Below, piece after piece: positions 9,647 to 24,840 of a DNA stretch of 64,000 nucleotides. This DNA comes from Amphiscolops sp. MND2022 (Eukaryota). How positions within the stretch are numbered: position 1 is the first letter of the stretch; the number at the start of each line of letters is the position of its first letter. The stretch spans positions 1,364,001-1,428,000 of the forward strand of contig OZ076409.1 of assembly GCA_964187785.1 (NCBI GenBank). The letters run 5' to 3'. The notes under the pieces were generated by a model. That model searched no databases. It worked only from the letters and a program-made list of their open reading frames with translations, and had not been told where the DNA came from. Made by a program: the position numbers and the translations under genes.

Positions 9647-9703
9647 GAAAGAATTTGATATAGTTACAATTAAAACCTTGAGGATTATCTCTATAGCTCT
9701 GTT
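9647..9703 (+). repeat. Left copy of 57-bp direct duplication flanking the Polinton
   Basis: gaaagaatttgatatag...ctatagctctgtt; 56/57 identical to 24784-24840. Confidence 0.95.
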
Positions 9704-9873
9704 AGTAGTATAGGAAATCCCGATACGGGCCACAAAAACCCCAAAAATTAAAAGTCCTCAAAACCATTGATTTTAAGCACTTTTTAGAAAACAAATCATC
9801 GCGAAAGCTCCCGCAAAATAGTGTTTTTACCATGAAGCAAAATTCACTAACCTCTATAGTTTAATGTCAACGT
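9704..9873 (+). repeat. Polinton left TIR (170 bp)
   Basis: agtagtataggaaatccc...aatgtcaacgt; 9707-9873 is the exact reverse complement of 24617-24783. Confidence 0.95.
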
Positions 9874-9904
9874 CGCACACACAACAATGAAAAATAACTA
9901 ATAA

Positions 9905-10336
9905 ATGGCGCGACAGCTAACACAGCTTCACAATTACCTCTCATTCAAAGACTTTGTTGAAAAATATGGATTAAAAAACGAAGCAACTTCCAATGTAAAA
10001 ATAAAAGAAATACTTAATGAATTAAATATTCCCTGTGGAATATACATGAGAGATGATAAGTTTAACACTACCAGTGGTATAGTTAACTTACATCCCTCAG
10101 TGGGAACACATTGGGTTATGTGTACAAATCAAAATTATTTTGATCCATATGGATGCCCACCCCCAACTAATATACTTAATCATATTAAAAATGGTATTTA
10201 TTCAGAATATCAAATTCAGACCAACGACAGTTATTGCGCGGCGTATTGTTTATACACACTGTATCTCACAAATAAAATTGGGTTCAAAAATGCAGTACTA
10301 AATTTATACTACCAAACTTTCAAACTTAATAAATGA
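9905..10336 (+). CDS. Adenain-like (adenoviral-type) cysteine maturation protease
   Basis: GTHWV (His), YFDPYG (Asp), QIQ (oxyanion Gln) and YCAAYC (Cys) in the order typical of the Polinton protease. Confidence 0.92.
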   Translation: MARQLTQLHNYLSFKDFVEKYGLKNEATSNVKIKEILNELNIPCGIYMRDDKFNTTSGIVNLHPSVGTHWVMCTNQNYFDPYGCPPPTNILNHIKNGIYSEYQIQTNDSYCAAYCLYTLYLTNKIGFKNAVLNLYYQTFKLNK

Positions 10337-10539
10337 AGAAAATTAGTAATTATTCAACTCAATATAAAATTATCTCGCACAGCTCCACAGAACAGCTTCA
10401 CAATCAAAATCATGGGAAAAATACAACAAATTTGCAGAAGCTATCGCGGAAGCTATCGCATAAGAAAACATTATCAAAAGATAGACAAGAATTTATAAAT
10501 AACATTTCCGCTAGTGGATTCAAACAATTTAATCTATAA
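10333..10539 (+). CDS. Small basic hypothetical protein (possible core/DNA-condensing peptide)
   Basis: 68 aa, Lys-rich, ATAAATG start, packed between protease and penton. Confidence 0.6.
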   Translation: MKKISNYSTQYKIISHSSTEQLHNQNHGKNTTNLQKLSRKLSHKKTLSKDRQEFINNISASGFKQFNL

Positions 10540-10542
10540 TAA

Positions 10543-11850
10543 ATGGATCTATCCACCTTCGTAACATATGATAAAAAAGAATCTCTTCTTTTAAGTATTG
10601 CAAAATCTAATCAAGAAATTGTTGAAAATACTCATTCTAAACCACAAGAAACTCTAGAATTTAAAATGACTAAACAAAAAGAATCTTTCTCATTTGATGT
10701 TCCGTTACTACTGCCTGAAAAATGGATGATGGGAGTAACAAGTTTAGAAGTATACAACACTGTATATAACATTACTGAAAAGAATAACAAACTACAAATT
10801 ATTCTGAATGATCAACAACTCAAAGAACTTAAACTTGATAGTGGATTAATACTGTTTGTTGAAGATTTATACGTTACTTATTTTGGTAAACCTTACACAC
10901 TTAGTGAGAATAATGAAGTTGTAGAAAAGGCCAATAAACTTATTACTAATAGTTATTCTAAAAAGAATAAACTTACTAGAATAGATTTTGATTATTTAAC
11001 AAAGATAGTTAAATCACTCAATGAAATATACAACAATCGCCTCAACCAGGAAACAATAAACCAAGAAAAATTAAACCAAGAAAAACTAAATCGAGAAAGA
11101 ATAATTAAAGCATACAAAGATCACCTAAAACAGGTAAAAATAAATTGGGAAGAAATAAAGTGGGAGGAAATAATTTTGGAGGACGCGAAAGCTACCGCGA
11201 CAACTAACACAGCTTCGCAAACAACCCAAGAAAATCACGAAGATGACAAAGATGACGAAGATGACGAAGTAAACCAAGTAAACCAAGCAAACCAAATAAA
11301 TCAAATAAATTTACCCCCTTTTGACATTGTTGAAAACGATTTCTTTGAAATTTATCTAACACCAGGAGTTTATGAACTAGTTGATATAAATAATGCTATT
11401 AAACAAAAAATTAATGAAAGTGATTATGATTTCAAATTTGATTTAATACCTGACACAATATCAATGAAATCAGTTTTAACAACCTCAAACAAAATTCAAT
11501 TTAACTCCAAACTTAACACAGTCTTGGGCTTTACACACACAGTATACCCACCCGGAACTCACACTTCAGAAAAACCAGTCATGATAACAACCACCGACAA
11601 AGTTCATCTGAAGTGCGACTGTGTAGATGGTTCAATTGTTAATGGTATACGAGAACAAATTTTATTTTCTTTCAATTTAAGCGCACCTCCCGGATATAAA
11701 ATTATAAAAGAACCCACAACTGTTTTGTACAAATCAATTAACAAAACACGACTGGACACCATTCAATTTTTCCTTGAAGACTCTAATCATGATTCAGTTG
11801 ATTTCAACGGGGAGACACTCACCTTCACAATTCAAATTATCAAAATTTAA
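10543..11850 (+). CDS. Minor capsid protein (penton, single jelly roll) with large internal insertion
   Basis: C-terminus CDCVDGSIVNG..ILFSF..PPGYKI..P..LY..IQFFLED...VDFNGE is typical of Polinton pentons; the N-terminal YNITEKNNK and LTPGVYE..IN motifs are separated by ~180 aa. Confidence 0.85.
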   Translation: MDLSTFVTYDKKESLLLSIAKSNQEIVENTHSKPQETLEFKMTKQKESFSFDVPLLLPEKWMMGVTSLEVYNTVYNITEKNNKLQIILNDQQLKELKLDSGLILFVEDLYVTYFGKPYTLSENNEVVEKANKLITNSYSKKNKLTRIDFDYLTKIVKSLNEIYNNRLNQETINQEKLNQEKLNRERIIKAYKDHLKQVKINWEEIKWEEIILEDAKATATTNTASQTTQENHEDDKDDEDDEVNQVNQANQINQINLPPFDIVENDFFEIYLTPGVYELVDINNAIKQKINESDYDFKFDLIPDTISMKSVLTTSNKIQFNSKLNTVLGFTHTVYPPGTHTSEKPVMITTTDKVHLKCDCVDGSIVNGIREQILFSFNLSAPPGYKIIKEPTTVLYKSINKTRLDTIQFFLEDSNHDSVDFNGETLTFTIQIIKI

Positions 11851-11868
11851 TACTTTTAATAATAATAA

Positions 11869-12387
11869 ATGAGTTATAATAAATTTATAAATAATTCATA
11901 TTGTGTTGGTGGAAAACATTATTCTCCCACCAGAAATATTTATGGAGATATTACAAACACTGGGATGCAGATGGGCAGGCCCGTAAAAATATTACGTGGC
12001 AACTGCGTAACGTGTAACAGAAACAAGAGTCTAATTGTATCTGACCGACCAGTAGATGCGGAAGGATTGGGAGACTTTTTCAAACATTTAGGTTCTGCAG
12101 CCAAAAATGTTGGAAAGAAAATACTCAATAACCCAGCAAGAGCTCTAGAAGTAGCAGCAAATATTGGAACTGCAGCAGCAAGTAAAAATCCACGATTAAT
12201 TGCCGCAACTGCCCCCGATGTTATTAAATTTGTTCATCAAGGGAAGGGCCTATACAAAGCTGAAGCATTGTCGAGTAAAGGCAGCAAAATAGGCAACGCA
12301 AGCGGCAGCAAAGCAGCTAACACAAGCAACACAAACAGAAAAGCAAGAACTAATAGTAAAGGCCTTTATCTGGGGAAAATCCACTAG
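11869..12387 (+). CDS. Putative core/virion protein: Zn-ribbon-like N-terminus plus amphipathic helix
   Basis: YCVGGKH...LRGNCVTCNRNKS, then EGLGDFFKHLGSAAKNVGKKIL; basic; GxGL-like motifs. Confidence 0.7.
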   Translation: MSYNKFINNSYCVGGKHYSPTRNIYGDITNTGMQMGRPVKILRGNCVTCNRNKSLIVSDRPVDAEGLGDFFKHLGSAAKNVGKKILNNPARALEVAANIGTAAASKNPRLIAATAPDVIKFVHQGKGLYKAEALSSKGSKIGNASGSKAANTSNTNRKARTNSKGLYLGKIH

Positions 12388-12413
12388 TTATATGCATTAA
12401 TTATACTTAATAA

Positions 12414-13523
12414 ATGTATTCAATTCACACCCGAGATGATTTAGAAAAATTAAAAAAATTACAAGAAACAAAATCTTTAGTACGCAAAGAAAGATTAAAA
12501 GAGAAACTAGGGAAGCAAGACTTTCATTATGACCTTGAAGAAGTTTTTGAACCTGTTACTACAAAGCAGGTGGAATCAAATGAAAAACAACTACAAGCCA
12601 TTGACAAACAAACCCAAGGGGTTACACAAGCCATTGAAAATCAGACAAGAGCAATAGAACACAATAATAATACTCTTCAAAATTCTATTAAAGAAGGAAT
12701 AAAACAATATAATGAAAATACAAATCATATCAACCAACTTCTTACAAGTCTTGTTAATTCCAACCAGGTTGATTCTAGTATTGTAAAAACAGTTTCTAAT
12801 TTACTTAATGACAAAAACAAAAGTCAATTTAGTTTAGAACCCATAGAAGGTTATCCACACAGCTCCACAAATTTATTCACAATTAATCCCCATAACCCAC
12901 AACAAGTACTAATCAAAGGTTCAACAATAACTTTCGAGAATGGGAATTCATACAATTTAAATGACCCAGATCTTCAATATTTTATAGCTAATACACAATT
13001 TGACAAACAAATAAATAACTGGGACTCAATTTATAACTTCTTAAATGATATGAAATATGATCTAAATTATGGAGATAAAAAATCAATCAGATATCAATTT
13101 ATTAAAGAATTATACTCTCGCTTTCAATTGCAGGGCTACACGCAAGGCTTCGCGCAGGACTACACGCAAGGCTTCGCGGGGAGCTCTGCACAAGCACATG
13201 ATTTGCAGGGCTTCGCGGGGAGCTCTACACAGGGCCAATCACGCGAAGCTACGCAGGGCTTCACAGGAAGTGGATTGCGAAAGCTATCACGAAGCTACGC
13301 AAATGGCGAAAGCTCCACACAACAGTACATTTTCCTCCCATCTGACCCAGACGAATTAGTGGATCAATTGAAACTACTTTATTTTGAAAAAGTTGGAGGA
13401 AATGATAGTTTTTTGATTATTGAACAAATTATTGCAATTATAGACAAGTTATTGGAGTATGAATGCATATCACCTTCTCAACACCAAAATATACGAAGTT
13501 CCACAATCTCGTTAATTACTTAA
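12414..13523 (+). CDS. Conserved Polinton protein (coiled-coil N-terminus; C-terminal DPxELVxxLxLL..GN motif)
   Basis: LEEVFEPVT, GSGL and YIFLPSDPDELVDQLKLL..KVGGND..IIAIIDKL resemble a recurrent Polinton gene of unknown function. Confidence 0.75.
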   Translation: MYSIHTRDDLEKLKKLQETKSLVRKERLKEKLGKQDFHYDLEEVFEPVTTKQVESNEKQLQAIDKQTQGVTQAIENQTRAIEHNNNTLQNSIKEGIKQYNENTNHINQLLTSLVNSNQVDSSIVKTVSNLLNDKNKSQFSLEPIEGYPHSSTNLFTINPHNPQQVLIKGSTITFENGNSYNLNDPDLQYFIANTQFDKQINNWDSIYNFLNDMKYDLNYGDKKSIRYQFIKELYSRFQLQGYTQGFAQDYTQGFAGSSAQAHDLQGFAGSSTQGQSREATQGFTGSGLRKLSRSYANGESSTQQYIFLPSDPDELVDQLKLLYFEKVGGNDSFLIIEQIIAIIDKLLEYECISPSQHQNIRSSTISLIT

Positions 13524-14565
13524 AGGATCAGTTTGTGGATTAAAGATCTTGTAATTTGGATTAGATTCATTACAAATCCTGTACCTACTCCCATTTTTAT
13601 CTTCCAATCTGTTTATTAAAAGGTAGTTGAATTTTTCGTTCCATGCTTCTCTACACAAACTTTTGAATTCCTCATAAGACAAATCAAAACCTGATATGTC
13701 CCTATGAATATGTTCTACATCTTTCAGTGTTTGTTGAAATAAAATTATGATATTACTATTGTTTCTAACTGTCTTTTTTGGTGCATCAAAATAACTCTGA
13801 CATAAATAATAAACATCACAAGATTTGTGCCTTCCCCTAGTAAAAAATGGATCAATCAATTTCTGGTTGGAGTCTAACATATCATCAAATACTACACAAC
13901 ACCCCCTATACTCTTCCAAATCCCCCACATTTTCTTCCACTTCTATTCCTTGCGAAGCTCCACTAATATAAAGCTCCACATCCTCATATTGTTCCGGACT
14001 CCTTGTAATGATACGAATTTGTTTCTCTGGATCTTCCAAACGAATCAATCGTAATTTATTCAACAACAAATGAGTCCTACCACAAAATGATGGCCCAACT
14101 ATTAATGTTCTATTAGTTTCGTTCACACCACTATTAGCATTAGCTCCCGCGTTAGCTCCCGCGTTAGCTCCCGCGTTAGCTTCCGCATTATTATTATTAC
14201 TGTGTGAAGACACGCCTCGTGGTAACTCTCGCTGTAGCTCTAGTGTTAGCTGTCGCGATAGCTGTCGCGGAAGCAAATCACCCCCAGTATGCTGATTATA
14301 GTGCTGATTATAATTATAGTGTTGTTTATAGTGTTGTTTTTTAAGGTGTGACCTTAAATAACTCTTATTTAATTCCTTATTACAAAATTCACACCTCACC
14401 TTTTTATTAAAACATTGAATGCATGAAGAGTATATTTTACCATTTTTGTATGAATAAAAAGTATTACAATTCTTCATAATATTACAGTCTTTACATCTTT
14501 TTTTTATTACTACAATCATCACACAAACTTTTTTCACTACTTTTATTACAAATTAAGCAATTCAT
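13512..14565 (-). pseudogene. Zn-finger-fused FtsK/A32-type packaging ATPase 1 (apparent +1 frameshift; Walker A K>R)
   Basis: Walker A GPSFCGRT, Walker B VVFDD, FFTRGRH..YLCQ. The true start is likely the ATAAATG at 14565 (MNCLICNK..LCDDC), which joins the 13512-14537 frame if the 8-nt homopolymer at 14498-14505 is 7 nt. N-terminus has CxxC pairs and a C2H2 finger. Confidence 0.85.
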
Positions 14566-14579
14566 TTATTTAGTAAAAA

Positions 14580-14860
14580 ATCACTAATTTCCTCTAATAA
14601 TCACTATGTAATCACTATGTAATCACTATGTAATCACTAAGCAAATTTCACTAAATCACTAAGGTTTCACTATGTGTCTCTAAGAGTATTCATTTCTCTA
14701 AGATTAAAGATTATAGTGAAATTTAGTGAAAATAAATGCTCTTAGTGAAACCTTAGTGATTTAGTGAGAAATTTAGAGATTCTTAGAGATCACTAAATTC
14801 CTCTAAGAATCTCTAAATTTCTCTAAACTTCTCTAAACTTCTTTAAGAATCACTATATTT
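14580..14860. other. Intergenic repeat and double-hairpin region between the two ATPase genes
   Basis: tcactatgtaa repeats; 25-bp perfect IR 14648-14672/14743-14767; 23-bp perfect IR 14766-14788/14801-14823. Confidence 0.75.
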
Positions 14861-14889
14861 TTTTTGTTAATTTCTCGCGATAGCTTCCG

Positions 14890-16107
14890 CTAATTACCCA
14901 GTTTATTTTTAGTAAAACTTTTTGCCTGATCATAAATTAAATTTTTAAAGTTCTCTTTAAATGAATCACTAATCAGTGGTTTTTGCATGCGTTGTACGTA
15001 GTTGTCTATTTTGGATTCATTTACTCTGATGTTATTTTGTTTGCAATAAAACACATAATAATAAGCTATGTTGAGTGGTGTTATTTCAATTGTCTGGTCG
15101 GACATTTCCTCTAAGAAAATTTTGAGTCTGTTGTATTCATCACCAGTGAAAAAGTAACTTTCATAAGCAACGAGTTGTTCTGGACCCCATTTACTTCGTT
15201 TGCTCGAATCATAAATTAACTTGTACTTGTCGTTTAGAATCTTGTATTTCTGACTCCTTGTGTCAAATTCAATTATGCCATATTCTAACTGATCCCGGTA
15301 GTATTTCCAATTAAGCCCATTAACTGCGTCTTTGATCCCATAAGTTTGTACAATCGACTCGAAGAAATTATCTGGGTTATTAATTGTTAAGTATATTTTG
15401 AAGCAATTTTCCCTCACGACTGGAAGAACATCCTTTGCATAGTGAGCAAGGTATATCACTTGAATACCCAAGTGTCTACCAAATCGGAAAAGGTCTTCTA
15501 CTTTTGTTTTAAGACTCTTATATGCACCTGCATCATCCAGTACAACAATTTTATTAGCAAGTGATTCAATGCATACTTTTTCCAACTGCAGTAGCGGTAC
15601 AAAATTTTGAGAGGGAAACTCACGTTCATCTCGCCCGAAAACTACGTAAGTTCTTTGCCCTGCAACTTGTGCGTTAGCTATCGCCAAATAATGCTTTAAA
15701 AAACTTGTCTTCCCAGAGCCACTACTACCATAAATTATGAAATGCGCGTTGCAATGAGAGATATTATGAGATGGGGATTCTTCATGCATAGCTTCTTGTT
15801 CACGTTCCTGGTTTGTCAGATGAGAGTATTTGAACCCTTCAAATTGTAGTAGTTTTTTATAAATTGTTTTAAACTGTCTAGGGCGAATATAATTCCAATA
15901 TATTACAACAAAAATACCTATTAATATAATTAAACATACAATAAACATAGGATTTGTGATTACTTTATAAATTTGTGTTTTCTGATACCAATACAGTTTG
16001 TTGGCTCCTGCGGTAGCTTTCGCGCCAGCTCCATCACCTGTGCTAACTCCTGTGCTAACTCCTTGATCATTATTTCTATAGCTCTGGAAGCAATAATCAA
16101 TATTCAT
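14890..16107 (-). CDS. Second FtsK/A32-type ATPase with N-terminal transmembrane helix
   Basis: TM MFIVCLIILIGIFVVIYW; Walker A GSSGSGKT; Walker B VVLDD; LFRFGRH..IYLAH. Confidence 0.85.
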   Translation of the reverse strand: MNIDYCFQSYRNNDQGVSTGVSTGDGAGAKATAGANKLYWYQKTQIYKVITNPMFIVCLIILIGIFVVIYWNYIRPRQFKTIYKKLLQFEGFKYSHLTNQEREQEAMHEESPSHNISHCNAHFIIYGSSGSGKTSFLKHYLAIANAQVAGQRTYVVFGRDEREFPSQNFVPLLQLEKVCIESLANKIVVLDDAGAYKSLKTKVEDLFRFGRHLGIQVIYLAHYAKDVLPVVRENCFKIYLTINNPDNFFESIVQTYGIKDAVNGLNWKYYRDQLEYGIIEFDTRSQKYKILNDKYKLIYDSSKRSKWGPEQLVAYESYFFTGDEYNRLKIFLEEMSDQTIEITPLNIAYYYVFYCKQNNIRVNESKIDNYVQRMQKPLISDSFKENFKNLIYDQAKSFTKNKLGN

Positions 16108-16130
16108 TTATTTATAAAAAATTGTTATAA

Positions 16131-17075
16131 ATGAACATGAATCAAAAGGCGAAAGCTGGCACAGGAGACGGCGCGGAGCTTCGCGATAGCTCTCGCAAGA
16201 CAGAAATTGTTAGAGAAATATTCTCGCCTGTAATCAAAAAGTTTCAAAGAATTCAAATACAAACTCACTATAAAGATGAATGTTGGAGTATCGATTTAAT
16301 TGATCGCTCAAACTTAAGCAAATACAACAAAAACTACAAGTTTATTTTCACAATAATTGACAATCATACTAAATATGCATGGGCGATTCCTCTTAAAGAT
16401 AAATCAGGAAACAGTAGAACAACTGCATTAAAAAGTCTTATCGAAAAAACAAAAAGAAAACCACACAAAATATGGAGTCATAGAGGTAAAGAGTTTTACA
16501 ACACAACATTTTTACACTATTTAAAAGAGCAAAGTATTCAAATTTATTCAACGAATTCAGATTTGAAGGCTGTTTTTGTTGAACGCTTCAATAGAACACT
16601 TTTGGACTTAATCAAAGAACCAATGTATATTGAGGGTAAAGGTAACTGGTTGAATCACATTGATGCTGCTTTACAAAAGTATAATAATCGTGTCCATACC
16701 ACAACCAAAATGACACCTTTTGAAATGAGTTTTAAGAGCGCAATACCACGGAGCCACGCGCGCAGCTTCGCCAATCTGATACCTAATATTAATAAATTGC
16801 ACACAGCTTCGCCCAAGTTCCAAGTGGGAGTTTTTGTAAGAGTTCCTGACAAAAGGAACATTTATTCAAAAGGTTATACAACAAATTGGAATAGAGAACT
16901 TTTCAAAATACACAGCATCAACAAAACAAACCCAGTAAAATACACTCTAAATGATGAAAACGGAGAAATTATTCAAGGAAAATACTATGAACAAGAACTT
17001 TTAAGAAGCATATTCGACTTTGACTCTAACAACAAAACGTTAGAAAGTATGAATATTTTCCACAGGTTTGAGTAA
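16131..17075 (+). CDS. Retroviral-type (RVE) integrase; second catalytic Asp appears replaced by His
   Basis: WSIDLID, IIDNHTKYAW, KIWSHRGKEF (usually SD/TD-xGxEF), VERFNRTL, YNNRVH..MTP, KGYTTNW; no chromodomain. Confidence 0.92.
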   Translation: MNMNQKAKAGTGDGAELRDSSRKTEIVREIFSPVIKKFQRIQIQTHYKDECWSIDLIDRSNLSKYNKNYKFIFTIIDNHTKYAWAIPLKDKSGNSRTTALKSLIEKTKRKPHKIWSHRGKEFYNTTFLHYLKEQSIQIYSTNSDLKAVFVERFNRTLLDLIKEPMYIEGKGNWLNHIDAALQKYNNRVHTTTKMTPFEMSFKSAIPRSHARSFANLIPNINKLHTASPKFQVGVFVRVPDKRNIYSKGYTTNWNRELFKIHSINKTNPVKYTLNDENGEIIQGKYYEQELLRSIFDFDSNNKTLESMNIFHRFE

Positions 17076-17134
17076 TTTTCGACGTAGTTTCGCGGAGCTT
17101 TCGCGATAGCTTTCGCAATATTTTTTTATTATAA

Positions 17135-18367
17135 ATGAACACAGATATGTTTTCTTTAAAAAATAAATACACACTCGAAAAACCTATTCATAAAATTGAT
17201 TTCATAAAGTATAGTCCAAGTAGTTTGGCGACAGTCAATAATAATAATTCAAATATTTCAATCAGTTTACCAAGAGAAGATGCATACATATGTTTACAAA
17301 ATAGTTTCATAAGTCTAGAATTTGAAGTACTTAAAAACAATAATACAAGATTTGCTGATGGTGATGAAATTGGATTGGTTAACTTTGGGCCAATCTCTTT
17401 ATTTAGTGAAGCCAAATTAACAACTTCTAGTGGGAAACACCTAGAAAAAGTTGACAACTTGCACTTGATTTCTTTAATGTATAAACTTCTGACAAGCACT
17501 AAATCCACAAGTCAATTAATGTATGGGTTTGAAGAATATACTACTATCAGAAGACAAGAACTAACAAACAACAAAAATGAGAAAGGAACCTTTTTTGTGA
17601 GAATAAAACTAAAAGACTTGTTTGGATTTGCTGATCAAGAAAAAATAACTTATGGGTTGGGCTACACATTAACTCTCAAACGGAACACTAACAATGACGC
17701 CATTTTAAGAAGTGTTGGAGTGGATGCTGCAAAAGTGGTTATTAAAGACATTGGTTGGTATATTCCACACTATGTTCCATCACTGGAAAACCAACAACTT
17801 GTCATGGACCAAATTTTAAATAAAGATCCAACCGAATTGAGTTACACAGAACGAATTATTTTTAGAGAAGATGTTAACACAAATTCGAATTGGACATTTG
17901 AATTAGGCAGCTCGGGTGAGTCCTGTCCAACTTTTGTGATTGTTGGATTTCAAGCTAGAAATAAAATTGATTCTCAGGTTCATGATAATGCAGTGTTTGA
18001 CCGGTTGCCAATTAGTAATGCTGTTTGTAAAATAGGATCAGAAAAATATCCCGATGATGGGATAGAATGTGACTACGACCGTGACAAATATGATCAAGCA
18101 TACAGTGAAATTGAAAACTTCTATCACTTACATTCTGAAACTAGCTTACTCAATCCATTTATTGATTTGCATAAATTCAGGACAAATTACCCCCTATTTG
18201 TATTTGACCTCAGCAAACAAAAAGACCAAATAGCTTCTCAACCAATCCGTTTAGAATTTAAATTTAATGCTGCCATTGATGTAGCAGATTATATAGCTTA
18301 TGCGCTAGTCCTAACACCTAAACTGATAAGTATCAGTAGTGATGGGCAAAGGCATTTTTTGGTTTGA
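17135..18367 (+). CDS. Major capsid protein (double jelly roll)
   Basis: 410 aa, beta-rich; DAYICLQNSFISLEF, SLFSEAKL, PTFVIVGFQ and YPLFVFDLSKQ resemble the Polinton MCP; position within the element. Confidence 0.88.
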   Translation: MNTDMFSLKNKYTLEKPIHKIDFIKYSPSSLATVNNNNSNISISLPREDAYICLQNSFISLEFEVLKNNNTRFADGDEIGLVNFGPISLFSEAKLTTSSGKHLEKVDNLHLISLMYKLLTSTKSTSQLMYGFEEYTTIRRQELTNNKNEKGTFFVRIKLKDLFGFADQEKITYGLGYTLTLKRNTNNDAILRSVGVDAAKVVIKDIGWYIPHYVPSLENQQLVMDQILNKDPTELSYTERIIFREDVNTNSNWTFELGSSGESCPTFVIVGFQARNKIDSQVHDNAVFDRLPISNAVCKIGSEKYPDDGIECDYDRDKYDQAYSEIENFYHLHSETSLLNPFIDLHKFRTNYPLFVFDLSKQKDQIASQPIRLEFKFNAAIDVADYIAYALVLTPKLISISSDGQRHFLV

Positions 18368-18547
18368 TATGATAGGAATGATGAATCATAGATTAAAAAC
18401 TATAATTGATGTGATAACTAACGTGATAACTAACGTGATAAATGATGATAATAAATGATCATAAAATAATTATAATTAGCGTGTGTGCGAGAGCTAGCGC
18501 GAAAGCTATTGCGAAGCTACGCGCCACAATAGTTATCACGATAGTTA

Positions 18548-21500
18548 TCACAAAAAATGGGCCCGATCACTTATCAGATTTAAAAGATCTTGATGATTCA
18601 ATTTTTCTTTCAGAGTCCAAATGTTATAGTATATTTCTTCATCTGGGAGGCTTGTGCCATCCCTTGTGCTCAGTTCGGTGTAATACAAACCAACTAACTT
18701 TATACAAAGTATACAAGGACAATCACCTTTTTGTGTGTGTTTATCCCATGATAAACTTTGTATTGGATTCAAGTACATACGCTTGTCATCAAAAGGATTC
18801 AAAGCTAGCTTATCTTGTTTCTGAACAGTTAAGTTGTGAGCATTACTTCTAATAGAATAATTAGTTGCCGTAGTTGTTTCAGAATTAAATAATGAATTTA
18901 TAAATTGTGAATAAATTGGTGTATGTTGTATTCCTTTTTGTTTTGACTTCTGTGTTACCTTCTGAACTGAGCTTCCATAGCTAAAAGAATATGATTTAGA
19001 TCTCAAAGCTATGAAGTTGTCTAATTCAATAATTGGTGATGTTTCTATTTTCATTTTACCTATAACTTTCTTGTTAATAGAATTGTACAACTCATGACTT
19101 GGGTCAAGCTCACTAAAATCAAAATCATCTTTGAAGTATTCCAAATCATTTATAAGGTCTCCAGTTTTAATACTTAGAATGAATGAGTCTGTATCCGTGT
19201 AATGCAGTTTAATGTTTGCATCGCTGCGCGAACTGTAATATGGTTGTAATTTGTGATAATAAAACTCATACATTAACAATTTACTCAGTTCTAAAACACT
19301 AAACCCCAAGTATATTGGTTTATCAAAAATTACTTTTTCCTTATCAAACTTGTAAACACTGAATTCGGAGTAATGATTAGTGATTCCTTTAAAGTTTAAC
19401 TTCGATTGTCTTTTTATTATTTGATCAATATTGGTGTGGGGGATAAACTCTAAATTAGTCCGGTCTCTAACATTTTCCATAGTCTTCCCAAAGAAAGCGT
19501 TGTTCATTAATTTGTACAAGTCTTTTTCAAATTTTGTTTTTGCTTTGGTGCGTTTTTGTGTGTTATGATTAATGTATTTTTCTAACCAAAGTGATTGTTT
19601 GAACCGGTAGATTGTGTGAATCTTTGTTACTTTCATCCCCAAATTCGTGTAAAACTTGAACATCCTGTAGTGCATCATATAATTATATTTGTTTGTTAGG
19701 TCACACATAAGTTTCTCGGTTGGTTTGTAATTGGGCTGTTTTACTTTGTTCATGTATTCTGAGAAAAGATTTGGATCGGTTTTTGTTTGATAAGGACAAA
19801 GTGGAAAGTTTTCGGTTTTTTCTTTAATTTCTGCTGGATATTCTAAATCGCATTCTATAAAATATCCAAATTCATTGTCATCTGGTGTATTCAAAATGTC
19901 TTCTTTAATTTCATTCATCAGTGCAGAATCAGATTGCATAACTTCGCCGTGACAGTTCTGCGCGAAGCTACGCATCTTTTTAAAGTCTCCAATAGGAAGG
20001 TATTGACTCATTGCCCATCCATAAAGATTATTTGCATCAATGTACAAAAGTTTCGGACTTTCATTTGACTCAATGAATCTGGGTCCCATTACACTTGAAA
20101 TTCCACCACGAATATTATTTTCAAGTAGTAATAATAACTGTTTGTCTTTTATGAAATCTAATTTAATTTTAGTAAGTTTTAAACCAGCTTTCCATGTATA
20201 ACCAGGTAAAGAGTAACTGTACAACGGATTGATGCCGTACATAAGCGTGCTTGTTTCAACAAAGTTTTCGAACACGTCAGTGAGTTGTAGTACATCCATT
20301 TTTAAGTACAATTCTGTTAGTTCTTGTGCTGTTGTAATGTTGTAAGTGTCAATCAATTGTTGGGTTCTTTTTATATCATCCTCGCATGGGTAAGATTGAT
20401 TCAGTGTTGACCAATAGTCCTCTTTTGTTAGATTTAGTGGTTCATGCAGGTTGTTAAGATTGAATTTTTCGTATGGATAAGCTAGTTTTTTCTTAAATAA
20501 ATCATCAGTTAGGCCCTCATTTTGCATATAAGGAAAATCATTTAATGATGTTATAAGTTTTTGTAGACTACTACTCAAAAATCTGTATGAATCTAAAAAC
20601 CTTAAACAACCTACTTGCACACTTACATAATTTTCCAATGACTTTGGTATAATATTTATTGGTAACTTTAGATTATAAGCTGATGTTAAGAGTTCTTCAA
20701 AAATTAAATGACAATCATAACCACTGAAATTATGGAAAAATATAGGAACAAACGAACTTGACTTTTTTTTACAATTTAAATTACATTTGTTGTGGGCTGC
20801 TCCTCGGTACTTGCCTGTAAGGTGATCGTGGTCTCAAACTGTATCCTCACCAAGTGGATTTTCACAAAGCCAACACACTTTGGATTGTTGAAATGATTTT
20901 TCTTCTTCGGGGGTTATTTCAAGAGGAATATTAGTTTCGAAATAAATATTTGCAATTTTTTCTAAAGTCAACATTTCATTTACAAACCATGTTACACACG
21001 ATTCACCAAAGTATGAGCTGTAATTATTACCAAATGGTGAAATTATATAAAATCCTACTGCAATTGGAATTTGTTTAAATAATACTTTGGGCGCGATAGC
21101 TACCACAGCTTCGTGGTCATTTGTGCGAAGCTCCGCGGGTTGTGAAACTGCGTGATTAATGCATTCAAAATCTGCATATACTCTTATTGGTACGGGAACT
21201 TTCATATGATAATCTTCGAACTTTAAGTCATCCTTCCAACTGAATGTGATATTAGTTGGTTGTTGTTTTTGACAACGGTCAATGTGTTGATTGAGAATAT
21301 CCTCAGAACTAAATGCAGTTAGACATCTTCTACACACCCATTTCATGTGCGAATCCTTATTTAGTAAGCAATGCAATTTTGTTATTAGACAATAATGATT
21401 TTCAAATAGTACCAAGTCAATTTGTGATTGTAAGTAATTTTTGTTAATATGAATTGGTGTTAAAACTGTTTTTGTAAGTTCAAAAACATTTACGTTTAAA

Positions 21501-22462
21501 TTATTTAAGTTTTCGAACTTGGGAATATCTTTAATTTTCATGGGGAATTCTAAACCATTAAAAATGAGTTTGTTCGTGTGCATTGAATAACTTGATGTTC
21601 TATTTTTATGATCCTCAACAGGAAAAAGGTGTGCTAGGATGCACCACAAAAAGCAAAATTGATCATCATTTTTTATATTTATAAATGATTTATTATTCTT
21701 ATATTTTTCTGGCAACTCAACCCACGAAGAAGCTTGAATATCATTAACTTTATAAATTTCTAATATAACAGTGACAATACCATTTAACACAAAACCTGAT
21801 CCTTCTAATTGTTCATCATCTAATTTCTGCATTAATGTGTTATGCTGTGTGCCGAAGGCAATCTGTGTGCGAAGCTGCGCGTGATTGTAATTAAAATCTG
21901 ATTTAACCCATTTGTGAAATACAACTTCCTCATCATTAACTATTTTTGAAAACTTAGCTAAATAACTCAATTGGAACTTGTATCGGGGAAAGTAATTTTT
22001 ATTTAGTAAATCATTAATCTGTTCTTCAAGATGATTTGTTGGATTTACTCTCAGTTTAATGTATGTTTTTTCATTCACAATTATTTCTACGTTAGTTCCT
22101 ACGTTAGTTCCTACGTTAGTTCCAGAATCATGTAGTGTATTACCAAATGTGTTTTTTGTAGCGTTGCGATAGCTTTCGCGGTTTTGACTTCTTAACGTGT
22201 GAATTTCACTTTGGAAATGTCTTGAATTACTTATATATTTACCACAATCTTCACACCAAATTTGTGTAGCTTCGCGTTGTTGTTTGGTTTTGTTTTTATG
22301 TTCATCTGAATTTAGATGATTAGACTTGTCAGACAATGGCATAAATGTATTACATTTTTTACAATAATATTGATTTAATTTTTGTAAATGTTTTATTGAT
22401 TTTAGATGATCAGACTTGTAAGCTTTTTTATAATCAGAATTACAAATACTGCAGTTCTCCAT
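18548..22462 (-). pseudogene. Protein-primed family B DNA polymerase (~1304 aa) with one in-frame TGA at 20834-20836
   Basis: ORFs 20834-22462 and 18548-20638 are in the same frame. Read-through gives EDTV*DHDHLTGKYRGAAHNKCNL (EndoVII/HNH-like insert) and FFHNFSGYD (ExoII). Also ExoI YADFE; Pol motifs YIDANNLYG, KLMNNAFFGK, YTDTDS; vOTU-like NDDQFCFLWC..HYCLI; N-terminal C2H2-like fingers. Confidence 0.95.
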
Positions 22463-22574
22463 TTATTTATAATAAATTTATGAATTTAATAGAAGCATAT
22501 TTTTCAATAGTATATTTTTCAATTATTAGTGTTAATTTTTATTTTATTTTTTAAGTTAAAATTGAATAAATTAA

Positions 22575-23251
22575 TTATAAAAAATTGTGTGGTTTAAGTG
22601 GTATTGTTGGTGGTGTGTGTGAAGCTACTTGTGATTTTGTATGCGAAGCTGTGTGCGAAGCTGTGCTCGAAGCTGCGCGTGATTTTGTGTGAATTTCCTG
22701 TGAAGCTACCTGCGAAGCTTCGCGATAATTTTCAAATTGAGTCACAAATCGGTGATATTCTTTTTCATCTATATGATTATCTTCTAGGCTGGCGACATAA
22801 AGTTGTCTAAAGTCGTCAAGAGTCTTCTGAATAATAGTGTACTTAAGTTTATAATTTTGCTCCTTTTTCTTCAAATAACTAGAACAAATCTTAACAAGGA
22901 TACCAGTTGTACAACCAACTCCTGCAGCGATTGGAACAACTATAATACCCACACCAGTAATACTTAGTGAGATTGATGCTGAAGTTGTTCCAATCACTAT
23001 AATGCCATCGAGGGAGTTAATTAGGTTATTTATTAGCTTGTATTTGTTGTATTTCTGTTTGTATTTATTTTCTTCCATTTCAAAATATTTCATCATTAGA
23101 CTAATGTTTTGAATAGAATTATTGAAACTATTTACTTTTTGTAATTCGCTCTGCAACGCGCTATGCAATCGCTTATTTATCATTGATTCTACATCATATG
23201 GTGCTGGGGGAGAAGCCGTTGGGGTCAGGGGGGATAGAGTTTTTGTTCCAT
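22575..23251 (-). CDS. Membrane protein (hydrophobic hairpin, coiled-coil flanks); N-terminus apparently frameshifted
   Basis: Hydrophobic GIIVIGTTSASISLSITGVGIIVVPIAAGVGCTTGILV. The ATAAATG at 23251 joins the 23183 frame if the 6-nt run at 23228-23233 is 7 nt, giving MEQKLYPPLTPTASPPAPYDVESMINK. Confidence 0.7.
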
Positions 23252-23254
23252 TTA

Positions 23255-24082
23255 TTAATCATATAAAATGAAATTTATTTCCGTTGGTGTTAATTTCATT
23301 CTGTGTTTCATATCAACAAGGTCTTTATAGGAATCTTTTTTCAATGACTCCAGAATTGATTGTCTGGTAGAATATTCTAAATCAGACAGATAATATTCAC
23401 CATCTGAAGTAGGTATTGTTTTTCCATACTTTTCCTTTAAATAGGATTCGCTAAAAGTTAGATAATTTGCAAAAGCTTGATCTTTATTGGGAAAGGAATC
23501 GAACAAACCTTTGTCATAAAGCAGTTGAATTATGTTGTTAGTTATAGTAATTTTATTTTGATCTAGGCTATTAAAAATTTTATTAATTTCATCTTCATTT
23601 AAAATCATTCCAGCTTGACCCACCTGACTCATAAACTTTAAATTACGGACTGTTAACATTTCAAAACTATTGTTGTGTATTAAATTTAGTACCTCATTTA
23701 CTAAAACAGTTCTTTGTTCGGCGAAAGATTTTTTCATACTTTGTTCTAAATTATTTATAGTTTTTGAAAGGTCTGAAAACTGGGAATAAATATCATTCAT
23801 TAACTTTGTGTTTAATAAAACATTTTGAATTTCCTGGTGGTCTAGTGTTTGATGCGCCTTCGCGATAGCTACCGCGGAAGCTGTCACGTCTAGCATTTTT
23901 TCTTCTACTTGATTTTCTATGTCTTTTTCAAAATCGCGTTGCAAATCTTCTTTTAATTTGGAATGTGTTATTTGGGCTAATTTTTCTTGACTTTTTATCA
24001 TGTCTTTTAGCTCTCGATATTCCCTCAGTTTTAGCTGTTCACTAGAATAACCAAACTTATGAAGAGACGGAGTTTCATACAT
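23255..24082 (-). CDS. Hypothetical helical/coiled-coil protein
   Basis: 275-aa ORF with ATAAATG start inside the element; no recognised domain. Confidence 0.7.
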   Translation of the reverse strand: MYETPSLHKFGYSSEQLKLREYRELKDMIKSQEKLAQITHSKLKEDLQRDFEKDIENQVEEKMLDVTASAVAIAKAHQTLDHQEIQNVLLNTKLMNDIYSQFSDLSKTINNLEQSMKKSFAEQRTVLVNEVLNLIHNNSFEMLTVRNLKFMSQVGQAGMILNEDEINKIFNSLDQNKITITNNIIQLLYDKGLFDSFPNKDQAFANYLTFSESYLKEKYGKTIPTSDGEYYLSDLEYSTRQSILESLKKDSYKDLVDMKHRMKLTPTEINFILYD

Positions 24083-24122
24083 TTATTAAGATGAAAAAGT
24101 TGAAAAATACGCGAAGCTACGC

Positions 24123-24381
24123 AAAACCCATAGGCATGCTCATTTGCATTGGTATATGCATTGACATGCCTATGGTAAACTCAAAGCCCATCGGGAGTCC
24201 GTTCCACTAAGAGTTTCCACAGCAGGGATTATCCTTTTTAAGAACTGTGCCATTGGTGATTATTCTCCCATAGCATGTAAGTTGTAACAAAGACTGGGGG
24301 ACGTTGGATAGAAGTGAACCCCAAACACTCCGGCCGAAGCCTTAACTTTAGTCAATGCTATAACCACTAAGCTATGGGAGA
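24123..24381 (-). ncRNA. Candidate Pol III structured RNA (tRNA-like/VA-RNA-like)
   Basis: Minus strand: TATATAA at 24408-24402, A-box TAGCTTAGTGG at 24374-24364, GGC-UUCG-GCC at 24341-24332, B-box-like GGTTCACTTC at 24320-24311, 11-bp stem 24381-24371/24274-24264, first T4 at 24126-24123. Confidence 0.45.
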
Positions 24382-24426
24382 CGAATCAATGTTAGTTGTA
24401 GTTATATAAGAATAACGTATGCGCCG

Positions 24427-24614
24427 GTACATTAACGTTGGCTGTACATTAACGCTGGCTGTACAGCAACGTTGGTTGTACATTAACGTTGGTTGTACAT
24501 TAACGCTGGTTGTACATTAATGCGGGTTGTGCATTAATGCTGGTTGTGCATTAATGCTGGTTGTGCATTAATGCTGGTTGTGCATTAATGCTGGTTGTAC
24601 ATTAACGCTGGTTG
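24427..24614. repeat. Subterminal 17-bp tandem array (~11 copies) next to the right TIR
   Basis: Unit gtacattaacgYtggYt with gtgcattaatgctggtt variants. Confidence 0.9.
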
Positions 24615-24616
24615 CA

Positions 24617-24783
24617 ACGTTGACATTAAACTATAGAGGTTAGTGAATTTTGCTTCATGGTAAAAACACTATTTTGCGGGAGCTTTCGCGATGATTTGTT
24701 TTCTAAAAAGTGCTTAAAATCAATGGTTTTGAGGACTTTTAATTTTTGGGGTTTTTGTGGCCCGTATCGGGATTTCCTATACT
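24617..24783 (-). repeat. Polinton right TIR (167 bp; lacks terminal ACT)
   Basis: Ends ...gatttcctatact rather than ...ctatactact. Confidence 0.95.
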
Positions 24784-24840
24784 GAAAGAATTTGATATAG
24801 TTACAATTAAAACCTTGAGGATTATCTCTATAGCACTGTT
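24784..24840 (+). repeat. Right copy of 57-bp flanking duplication
   Basis: gaaagaatttgatatag...ctatagcactgtt. Confidence 0.95.

Follow-up and report, generated by a model that had tools for sequence, protein, structure and literature searches.

The stretch analyzed here is a 64,000-nucleotide window of Amphiscolops sp. MND2022 contig OZ076409.1 (the window), and it contains at 9704..24783 (+) a 15,080-bp Maverick/Polinton element with a GC content of 32.8%, a member of a family that we refer to as lineage A. The question raised by this locus is what the short GC-rich palindromes that recur through the element are and how they came to be there. In a preliminary description of this DNA they had been read as an element-wide lattice of motifs of the form GCG-N1-2-AGCT-N1-2-CGC, a code selected at the cost of protein sequence. 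Our analysis indicates that the 26 motifs are probably copies of a self-propagating, ultra-short, GC-rich quasi-palindromic insertion with a 12-nt quantum, which has been multiplying in lineage A. Of the three roles suggested earlier, that of a self-propagating micro-repeat fits the evidence best, and protection or organization of single-stranded DNA (ssDNA) or binding of zinc-finger (Zn-finger) proteins is possible as a secondary role.

The motifs were counted by regular expression, which returned the same 26 exact matches as the preliminary description, position for position and all within 9801-24689, and none in the remaining 48.9 kb of the window. Shuffling of the element with dinucleotide content preserved gave a mean of 0.004 motifs and a maximum of 1 in 1000 shuffles, and Markov simulations of order 3, 4 and 5 predicted 0.01, 0.1 and 1.2 motifs, respectively, compared with the 26 observed. 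When the codons of the open reading frames (ORFs) were shuffled 1000 times the mean was 0.005, compared with 17 motifs observed inside ORFs. The host genome (1.07 Gb, eukaryotic, the window lying on a 104-Mb nuclear contig) contained GCGNNAGCTNNCGC 5326 times per strand as against 226 for the reversed control, an approximately 25-fold excess, and GCGAAGCTNCGC 3642 times as against 138. Matches in the genome were grouped in clusters about 15 kb long, and in the initial 9 Mb of contig C1 Maverick-related DNA accounted for every cluster and for one of three singletons; the other two singletons were located in GC-richer unrelated DNA, at about the number that the control predicts. A scan of IMG/VR for a chain of two units produced 19 loci, all of them unrelated (53-70% GC, simple tandem repeats of Ala type), and hence revealed no environmental relative with units.

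Motifs were present, as had been described, in both terminal inverted repeats (TIRs), in spacers and in frame within peptides such as MRSFAQ, HARSFAN and AELRTN. They occupied all three codon phases and both strands as well as spacers and TIRs, and are therefore a feature of the DNA and not of the proteins. This use of phase and strand, together with the enrichment controls, bears out the earlier claim of an element-specific, DNA-level feature. Non-coding DNA makes up 12.9% of the element yet holds 9 of the 26 units (2.7-fold, P=0.004), with the other 17 inside ORFs. The gene for the major capsid protein (MCP) had been singled out as free of motifs; this is true of the window copy but is not significant when taken alone (P(0)=0.11), and two sibling copies carry a unit directly after the MCP start codon. 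The term lattice overstates the arrangement because spacing along the element is irregular, with gaps between sites ranging from 10 to 2058 nt and showing no period.

To describe the unit itself, ten sibling copies were aligned to the window, each half separately. As the preliminary description had proposed, the core of the unit corresponds to the published mini-hairpin sequences GCGNAGC and GCGNNAGC, and the G..A pair is strictly kept. The centre was AGCT in 26 of 26 motifs here and in 206 cases in the ten copies, in which the only other XGCY centres were AGCA (5) and TGCT (3), with 0 for the 13 remaining; none of the 15 other palindromic tetramers was found as a centre in these copies, except for one AATT. 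In contrast to the earlier pattern, in which the two spacers varied independently, spacer lengths were symmetric, either (1,1) or (2,2), in 25 of 26 motifs in the window and 199 of 206 in the copies. Counted for the window plus the ten copies, the spacing classes were 9+74 for (1,1), 16+125 for (2,2) and 1+7 for mixed forms. The (1,1) form is really GCGAAGCTNCGC (9/9 here, 78/83 overall), giving a first type of unit, GCGAAGCT-N-CGC, of 12 nt. The second type is CG-NN-AGCT-NN-CG with a period of 12, which together with its neighbours reads GCG-NN-AGCT-NN-CGC. In a tally of the site listing, N at 35 distinct (1,1) sites was A in 20, G in 10, C in 3 and T in 2, and the (2,2) form occurred in 26 variants with loop dinucleotides that were mostly AT, AA, TT, GA, AC, GG and GT. 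Variation was confined to the hairpin-loop positions, and in chains of units AGCT and CGCG alternated with a 12-nt period. Only one strand of a third, minor 12-mer, GCGAAGCCCTGC, reads as a mini-hairpin, and this 12-mer was found 367 times in the genome compared with 9 for its control; in other copies it is inserted and mirrored in the TIRs like the main units (window-equivalent positions 9775 and 24716). According to a review of these structures (PMC13037366), GCGNAGC and GCGNNAGC form extraordinarily stable, nuclease-resistant hairpins, and among sequences of the form GCNNNGC only GNA triloops form, GAA being the most stable.

Comparison of the 26 sites across the ten copies gave 260 cells, and at no site was the unit exact in all ten copies. 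Exact units accounted for 86 cells, absence by a gap of at least 9 motif columns for 67, partial or extra units for 56 and substitutions only for 26, with 25 cells unaligned. The number of exact motifs per sibling copy ranged from 12 to 36, and was highest in the closest relatives of the window copy (36 and 29). Many of the gaps were clean, as in the case where CTGTGT is directly followed by GTGATT in one copy and the other reads CTGTGT-GCGAAGCTGCGC-GTGATT. Clean 12-nt gaps were observed at 13243, 19962, 21125 and 22712, a gap of 15 nt at 22166 and gaps of 23-24 nt at 23862. The units are thus optional between copies at the same site, including in frame inside genes. The unit sites in the window are listed below, without strand except where one is stated.

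9801..9814, (2,2) unit in the left TIR, mirror of 24676
10446..10459, (2,2) unit in a spacer, chained with the near-unit at 10434
11185..11198, (2,2) unit in frame, 12-nt indel relative to copy 1
13243..13254, (1,1) unit GCGAAGCTACGC encoding REAT, clean 12-nt indel
14149..14186, array of three (2,2) units of period 12 starting at 14149, 14161 and 14173, encoding (ANAG)n, unit number varying among copies
14255..14268, (2,2) unit in frame, in the same ATPase linker as the 14149 array
14877..14890, (2,2) unit in a spacer, abutting the ATPase stop
15671..15684, (2,2) unit in frame, 12-nt indel relative to copy 9
16010..16023, (2,2) unit in frame, ATPase N-terminus
16173..16196, overlapping (1,1) unit at 16173 and (2,2) unit at 16183, integrase N-terminus (AELRDSSR), gaps in 5-7 of 10 copies
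16760..16771, (1,1) unit in the integrase (HARSFAN)
17092..17116, overlapping (1,2) unit at 17092 and (2,2) unit at 17103, in a spacer 19-43 nt upstream of the MCP start
18487..18522, chain of an exact unit (18487), a near-unit (18499) and an exact unit (18511), between the converging ends of the MCP and polymerase genes
19962..19973, (1,1) unit in the polymerase (MRSFAQ), 12-nt indel relative to copies 8 and 9
21125..21136, (1,1) unit in the polymerase (AELR), 12-nt indel, absent in 5 of 10 copies
21869..21880, (1,1) unit in the polymerase (AQLR), clean 12-nt indel in 6 of 10 copies
22166..22179, (2,2) unit in the polymerase (RESYR), 15-nt indel
22712..22723, (1,1) unit, the perfect palindrome GCGAAGCTTCGC, clean 12-nt indel, with three (2,2) units there in copy 5
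23862..23875, (2,2) unit, part of a 23-24-nt two-unit insertion
24111..24122, (1,1) unit in a spacer, 29 nt upstream of the ORF start at 24082
24676..24689, (2,2) unit in the right TIR, mirror of 9801
13205..13216, minus strand, third-family unit GCGAAGCCCTGC, hairpin sequence on one strand only
9910..9923, near-unit, one core mismatch (CpG transition)
10434..10447, near-unit, one core mismatch (CpG transition)
13277..13300, two near-units (13277 and 13289), one mismatch each
13952..13963, near-unit, one mismatch (CpG transition)
14137..14150, near-unit heading the 14149 array, one mismatch
14243..14256, near-unit, one mismatch
16149..16162, near-unit, one mismatch
21093..21106, near-unit, one mismatch, gap in 6 of 6 lineage-B loci
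22264..22275, near-unit (REAT), one mismatch, clean 12-nt gap in 6 of 6 lineage-B loci
22655..22678, two near-units (22655 and 22667), one mismatch each
23874..23887, near-unit chained to 23862, one mismatch

The same quantum dominates the indel spectrum. Among 611 unique gaps between the ten copies and the window, 98 were exactly 12 nt long, compared with 11 of 11 nt and 4 of 13 nt, and minor peaks were seen at 24 nt (13) and 36 nt (6). An exact unit was contained in 31 of the 98 gaps of 12 nt, a unit with at most one core mismatch in 51 and one with at most two mismatches in 61. With respect to class, 19 events of 12 nt involved a (1,1) unit and 12 a (2,2) unit, and a few (2,2) events were of 13-15 nt. 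Tandem growth was also evident: one site held GCGTAGCTTCGC three times over, and the array in the ATPase linker varied in unit number. Over 13 copies, 35 distinct (1,1) sites and approximately 60 (2,2) position clusters were found, or about 95 positions. The idea of a code selected at the cost of protein sequence is not supported by these data because the motifs are discrete 12-nt insertions and not a recoding of existing residues; the units add four residues in what appear to be variable linkers, are polymorphic, decay at CpG and are absent from the second Maverick lineage described next.

This second lineage, lineage B, is found in the same genome at about 75% nucleotide identity, with 4929 first-look candidates. 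Its loci (L061-L067, on contigs C5, C10, C1198, C7 and C1) share the left-half gene order of the window and carry a homologous gene for a protein-primed DNA polymerase B (pPolB) with an HNH motif; at the amino-acid level they match P0045 at 87-94%, and in many copies the pPolB frame is open over about 1250 amino acids (aa). In 31.5 kb of lineage-B pPolB loci there were no full units and one half-motif, and in a further 7.6 kb there were neither full units nor half-motifs, whereas the equivalent 6.9 kb of the window holds 10 full units and 28 half-motifs. The sites at 21093, 21125 and 22264 were gaps in 6 of 6 lineage-B loci, and no unit was found in any lineage-B locus at any aligned site. The lineage-B indel spectrum also lacked a 12-nt peak, with 3 of 60 gaps being 12 nt long and none of these a unit. 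As lineage B is free of units, they must be dispensable and lineage-specific, and are neither a general requirement of Maverick biology nor the product of a host repair process acting everywhere.

Protein comparisons point the same way. In the homologue alignment called for by the preliminary description, the unit-encoded peptides REAT (63), RESYR (96), AQLR (195) and AELR (443) were absent from 12 homologues with 66-76% identity to the N-terminal part of pPolB. Tetrapeptides of the (1,1) type were present in 33 of 38 homologues at 85% identity or more, 12 of 19 at 80-85%, 10 of 23 at 70-80% and none of 40 below 70%; the reversed-peptide control for this count gave 1 in total. The distant group of homologues proved to be lineage B itself. 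Since the units and their peptides are missing there, the differences between copies are taken to be mainly gains in lineage A.

Among 13 clean (1,1) events no target-site duplication (TSD) was found, the gap sliding by 0 nt in 5, 1 nt in 6 and 2 nt in 2, which is close to chance, and no microhomology beyond chance was present at these insertion sites. Orientation was unbiased both relative to transcription (11 sense versus 11 antisense) and between element halves (6+/8- in the left half and 11+/8- in the right half). Some new units adjoined decayed ones (13243, 19962, 22712) and others were isolated (17139, 20845, 20902, 24111, 24310), and an inspection by eye for local templating of new units by their neighbours yielded no rule. 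Units in the TIRs were mirrored in both arms in 4 of 4 copies for which both ends were in hand. The units at 9801 and 24676 were present in both arms in the window copy and in copies 0, 3 and 4, and in neither arm in the others. Mirrored TIR units must therefore have arisen before or during a round of replication or transposition, and not in a resident chromosomal copy.

Once inserted, the units decay. Symmetric units in the window comprise 25 that are exact, 14 carrying one core mismatch and 15 carrying two; the corresponding counts (0, 1 and 2 mismatches) were 0, 0 and 15 in the flanks and 0.03, 0.03 and 1.3 in order-1 Markov simulations. CpG transitions accounted for 12 of the 14 one-mismatch units, and the units hold 66 of the 310 CpGs of the element in 498 bases. 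The observed to expected CpG ratio was 0.92 and 0.95 in the host flanks, 0.60 in the element outside units and 0.49-0.70 in lineage B, a contrast which is consistent with methylation-type decay aimed at transposons. With respect to the proteins, low-confidence segments 62-72, 83-122 and 194-201 in a structure model of the pPolB N-terminal part hold unit-encoded peptides, which would place these peptides in variable linkers; the model was poor overall (predicted local distance difference test (pLDDT) 44.8), only residues 1-240, the one part modelled with confidence, were used, and low confidence at inserts may partly reflect alignment gaps. Separately, a GTNVGTNVGTNV repeat built from 12-nt units was noted at 22087-22123 (-), at about residues 114-126 of the pPolB N-terminal part. 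The units encoding it look like transition-decayed copies of the unit of the ANAG array at 14149, and the repeat would show old arrays fading into ordinary coding sequence.

How could a 12-nt sequence multiply in this way? Protein-primed replication displaces long single strands. A strand-displacing protein-primed polymerase might stall at a very stable ssDNA mini-hairpin; slippage by one unit at the hairpin would then give rise to arrays, and new sites would follow if the polymerase switched templates or if a fragment of unit length were captured at a break. We place the presumed gains in the replicating, transposition-competent phase of the element because of the mirrored TIR units. Copying or keeping of a unit would depend on an intact mini-hairpin core GCG-N(N)-AGC, as loop positions are nearly free and core variants are almost only products of CpG decay. 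The units would on this account be mainly selfish passengers, tolerated where the proteins allow, and any benefit to the element would be secondary. Copy-choice is put forward, tentatively, as the leading candidate for the engine of this process. It is more speculative, and on balance doubtful, that the 12-nt sequence is itself mobile. No smaller insertion that propagates itself would then be known from a nuclear genome, and the mini-hairpin would be its only machinery, hijacking Maverick replication and leaving four-residue inserts in proteins; the element may in that case have begun using the hairpins for ssDNA protection or priming.

Several observations weigh against the insertional account or limit it. 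The mechanism of insertion is inferred throughout. Standard DNA folding does not predict the mini-hairpin, and hairpin formation therefore rests on published chemistry: nearest-neighbour folding of the units gave -2 to -3 kcal/mol with z of -0.1 to -0.5, and the review states that standard folding models fail for this motif (PMC13037366). The 13 copies covered are drawn from probably several hundred, and 10 of them were chosen for their likeness to the window. Different regions give conflicting backbone trees, and three unit sites differ between copies 1 and 4, which are about 1.6% apart. In addition to gains, some recombination between copies, or now and then a precise loss, has to be assumed, and the polarity of individual events is not always certain. 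A comparison of the left half, collinear with L067, revealed no enzyme or gene specific to lineage A. Nearly all spacers, the TIRs and the surroundings of several gene starts contain units, which fits a cis-acting role as well, and strict conservation of the core could reflect selection for function and not a requirement for copying.

The carrier shows the hallmarks of a Maverick, namely long TIRs, pPolB, an rve integrase, a double jelly-roll MCP and an ATPase of the A32/FtsK type. Lineage A is large: with the MCP gene as genome query 1472 first-look candidates were obtained, and the scored subset comprised at least 40 copies whose MCP gene was 92-100% identical. The features of the window copy are as follows.

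9647..9703 (+), 57-bp flanking direct repeat, left copy, outside the motif system
9707..9877 (+), left TIR, element end AGTAGTATAGG from 9704, an end word common to sibling copies
9905..10336 (+), ORF of 143 aa, no family match
10543..11850 (+), ORF of 435 aa, no family match, contains unit 11185
11869..12387 (+), ORF of 172 aa, no family match
12414..13523 (+), ORF of 369 aa, no family match, contains unit 13243
13512..14537 (-), Zn-finger and P-loop ATPase-like protein judged from its translation, weak PHROG endonuclease/terminase matches, 12-nt array in the linker
14890..16107 (-), A32-like packaging ATPase (PF04665, E 5.6e-7, 29.7 bits against a cutoff of 22.8), units 15671 and 16010
16131..17075 (+), rve-type integrase (PF00665, E 1.5e-7, 32.0 bits, just below the curated 32.6), units 16173, 16183 and 16760
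17135..18367 (+), double jelly-roll MCP (PF21738, E 8e-24), unit-free in the window copy
18548..22462 (-), pPolB, units 19962, 21125, 21869 and 22166
22575..23183 (-), ORF of 202 aa, no family match, contains unit 22712
23255..24082 (-), ORF of 275 aa, no family match, contains unit 23862
24613..24783 (-), right TIR, end 3 nt shorter than in siblings
24784..24840 (+), 57-bp flanking direct repeat, right copy, one mismatch to the left copy

The integrase ORF also draws PHROG transposase matches, and a search of the PDB with the Zn-finger ATPase returned nothing meaningful. The N-terminal part of pPolB contains three Zn fingers and, just before the polymerase, an HNH/Endonuclease_7-like motif which was recognized from a PF02945 match in homologue P0003 (E 5e-6). 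This motif was considered as the nuclease responsible for the units and was rejected as a sufficient cause, as lineage B and distant homologues carry it without units. In the window copy pPolB is split by a single in-frame stop at 20834-20836, immediately upstream of the HNH-like motif. The nearest Atlas clusters carry PF03175 (27-47% of members; score 0.97), homologues run on from the window ORF into the polymerase, and Pfam and PDB sequence searches with the fragment beyond the stop gave no matches. The TIR arms are 171 nt long and 99% complementary, and those of siblings match at 225-230 of 230 positions. One sibling, with left and right ends L019 and L020, has its TIR unit 217 nt from the end compared with 98 nt in the window, and in this copy BLAST found the segment equivalent to window 9732-9799 twice, a tandem duplication present in both TIR arms (230/230 identical). 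The right end of the window copy lacks the last 3 nt (..CCTATACT versus ..CCTATACTACT in siblings). Duplications of 6 bp flank 3 of 3 sibling copies (AACAGG, TACAAA, GCCGAG), and the window copy has the 57-bp repeat instead, which together with its shortened right end suggests a non-canonical integration or repair event.

Could the units be retained because they are useful as DNA? One such explanation holds that inserted units serve as ssDNA hairpin signals, kept for protection or organization of the strand or for priming or entry of complementary-strand synthesis. The core follows the published mini-hairpin rule exactly, and mini-hairpins are known at the phage G4 and ssiA origins and in N4 promoters, as given in the review (PMC13037366). 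The G..A pair is broken only by single decay steps, each site offers one hairpin sequence per strand, units are found in both TIRs, and the family has been very successful (1472 first-look candidates), with the closest relatives of the window copy carrying most units (36 and 29). We nevertheless regard this explanation as unlikely, given that lineage B, with a homologous HNH-pPolB and many intact pPolB frames, does without units, that no site is conserved across copies and that units decay by CpG transition without being replaced at the same site. The third family has spread as well (367 versus 9) with a hairpin on one strand only, and the variable loop of the (1,1) unit favours T, the least stable choice by the melting-temperature order in the same review (PMC13037366). 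A role as duplex binding sites that act in packaging, replication or transcription, recognized by a host factor or by a Zn-finger protein of the element (the ATPase with Zn fingers, or pPolB with its N-terminus), appears less likely still. Dispersed repeated binding sites do serve other DNA viruses, and here the dyad symmetry, the fixed GCG, AGCT and CGC blocks and the symmetric spacers (25/26 here, 199/206 in the copies) would suit a bound protein, as would the two element proteins with N-terminal Zn fingers. Most spacers also contain units. Two starts have them close upstream, that of the MCP gene at a distance of 19-43 nt and that of the ORF beginning at 24082 at 29 nt, and other units flank the starts of the divergent ATPase and integrase genes. 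The 2.7-fold enrichment in non-coding DNA would fit too, but purifying selection that removes insertions from genes would produce it just as well. Binding is harder to square with two spacing classes and with a third family that is one-sided, 17 of the 26 units are inside ORFs, and neither position nor number is conserved (no site exact in 10 of 10 copies, none in lineage B, which has the same Zn-finger pPolB architecture). Both of these roles are compatible with an insertional origin of the units.

Presence/absence polymorphism, and a palindromic form resembling abutting terminal inverted repeats, would be expected of footprints or miniature derivatives, akin to miniature inverted-repeat transposable elements, of a cut-and-paste transposon targeting these Mavericks; we consider this very improbable, as there is no TSD, the centre is invariant with the variable positions off-centre, the opposite of an excision footprint, and the units are confined to one Maverick lineage and form tandem arrays with a 12-nt period. 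Chance, base composition or an ordinary low-complexity coding repeat or minisatellite is hardly credible: although some units do occur in tandem arrays encoding simple peptides such as (ANAG)n, shuffles yield approximately none, all three phases, both strands, spacers and TIRs are used, and 12-mers recur unchanged at isolated new sites. The shuffle controls and the indel spectrum exclude this last explanation for the full set of units. We retain the self-propagating insertion as the probable identity of the units.

The closest known kinds are the invasive GC-rich palindromes of organelle genomes. One source (PMC8811140) describes the GC clusters of yeast mitochondrial DNA, with polymorphic in-frame insertions in var1 and translationally bypassed 'byp' clusters in Magnusiomyces. 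Like the present units these are short GC-rich palindromes in an AT-rich replicon, optional, mostly in spacers but also in frame and linked with recombination; they differ in being several times longer, organellar and bounded by terminal AG/TAG repeats, which are interpreted as target duplications. The present units measure 12 nt, have no TSD, reside in a nuclear virus-like transposon and, as multiples of three, are always translated. MUSE1, the mitochondrial ultra-short element of Podospora anserina, is described in PMC7218506 and PMC1864894 as 11 bp long with more than 100 copies. It is a comparably tiny, invasive, GC-rich element with many dispersed copies, found at recombination junctions, but is organellar and is not known to sit in frame inside many genes; the comparison is by description and not by sequence. 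The small, mobile double-hairpin elements of Allomyces mitochondrial DNA, cited in PMC7218506, have two hairpins and are optional between relatives, and unlike the units here they are longer and organellar.

In every unit the invariant portion is a mini-hairpin sequence of the d(GCGNAGC) or d(GCGNNAGC) kind, carried by one strand or by both, and GCGAAGC, the most stable variant according to the review (PMC13037366), is the constant half of the (1,1) unit. The natural mini-hairpins named there are single ones, at phage and plasmid origins and N4 promoters, and not dozens of multiplying insertions.

Palindromes that enter or accumulate within genes have bacterial counterparts as well. Rickettsia palindromic elements are reportedly selfish palindromes found in frame at structurally tolerant places in genes (Ogata et al. 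2000); they are said to be about ten times longer, and they are bacterial and genome-wide whereas the units here belong to one mobile element. HIP1 of cyanobacteria is a short GCG...CGC palindrome which is hugely over-represented, also within genes. It arises and is maintained by substitution genome-wide, whereas the units here are insertions limited to one transposon lineage. In the literature consulted we found no report of invasive GC-rich palindromes in Mavericks/Polintons or any other eukaryotic virus-like element, and the unit strings were not found in any relevant paper.

Invasive GC-rich palindromes are thus already known from organelle and bacterial genomes, and the 12-nt insert described here would rank among the smallest invasive DNA sequences yet observed. 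If the reading is true, as few as 12 nt can be selfish DNA nested within a selfish element and number thousands of copies in a single genome, and the chemistry of the GCGNAGC mini-hairpin is tied to an evolutionary process. The units also amount to a natural experiment on how well capsid, polymerase, integrase and ATPase proteins tolerate insertions, with a ready internal control in the same genome, where the invaded lineage exists beside its unit-free sister lineage. In practical terms, they provide sharp markers for subfamily history and for recombination among Maverick copies.

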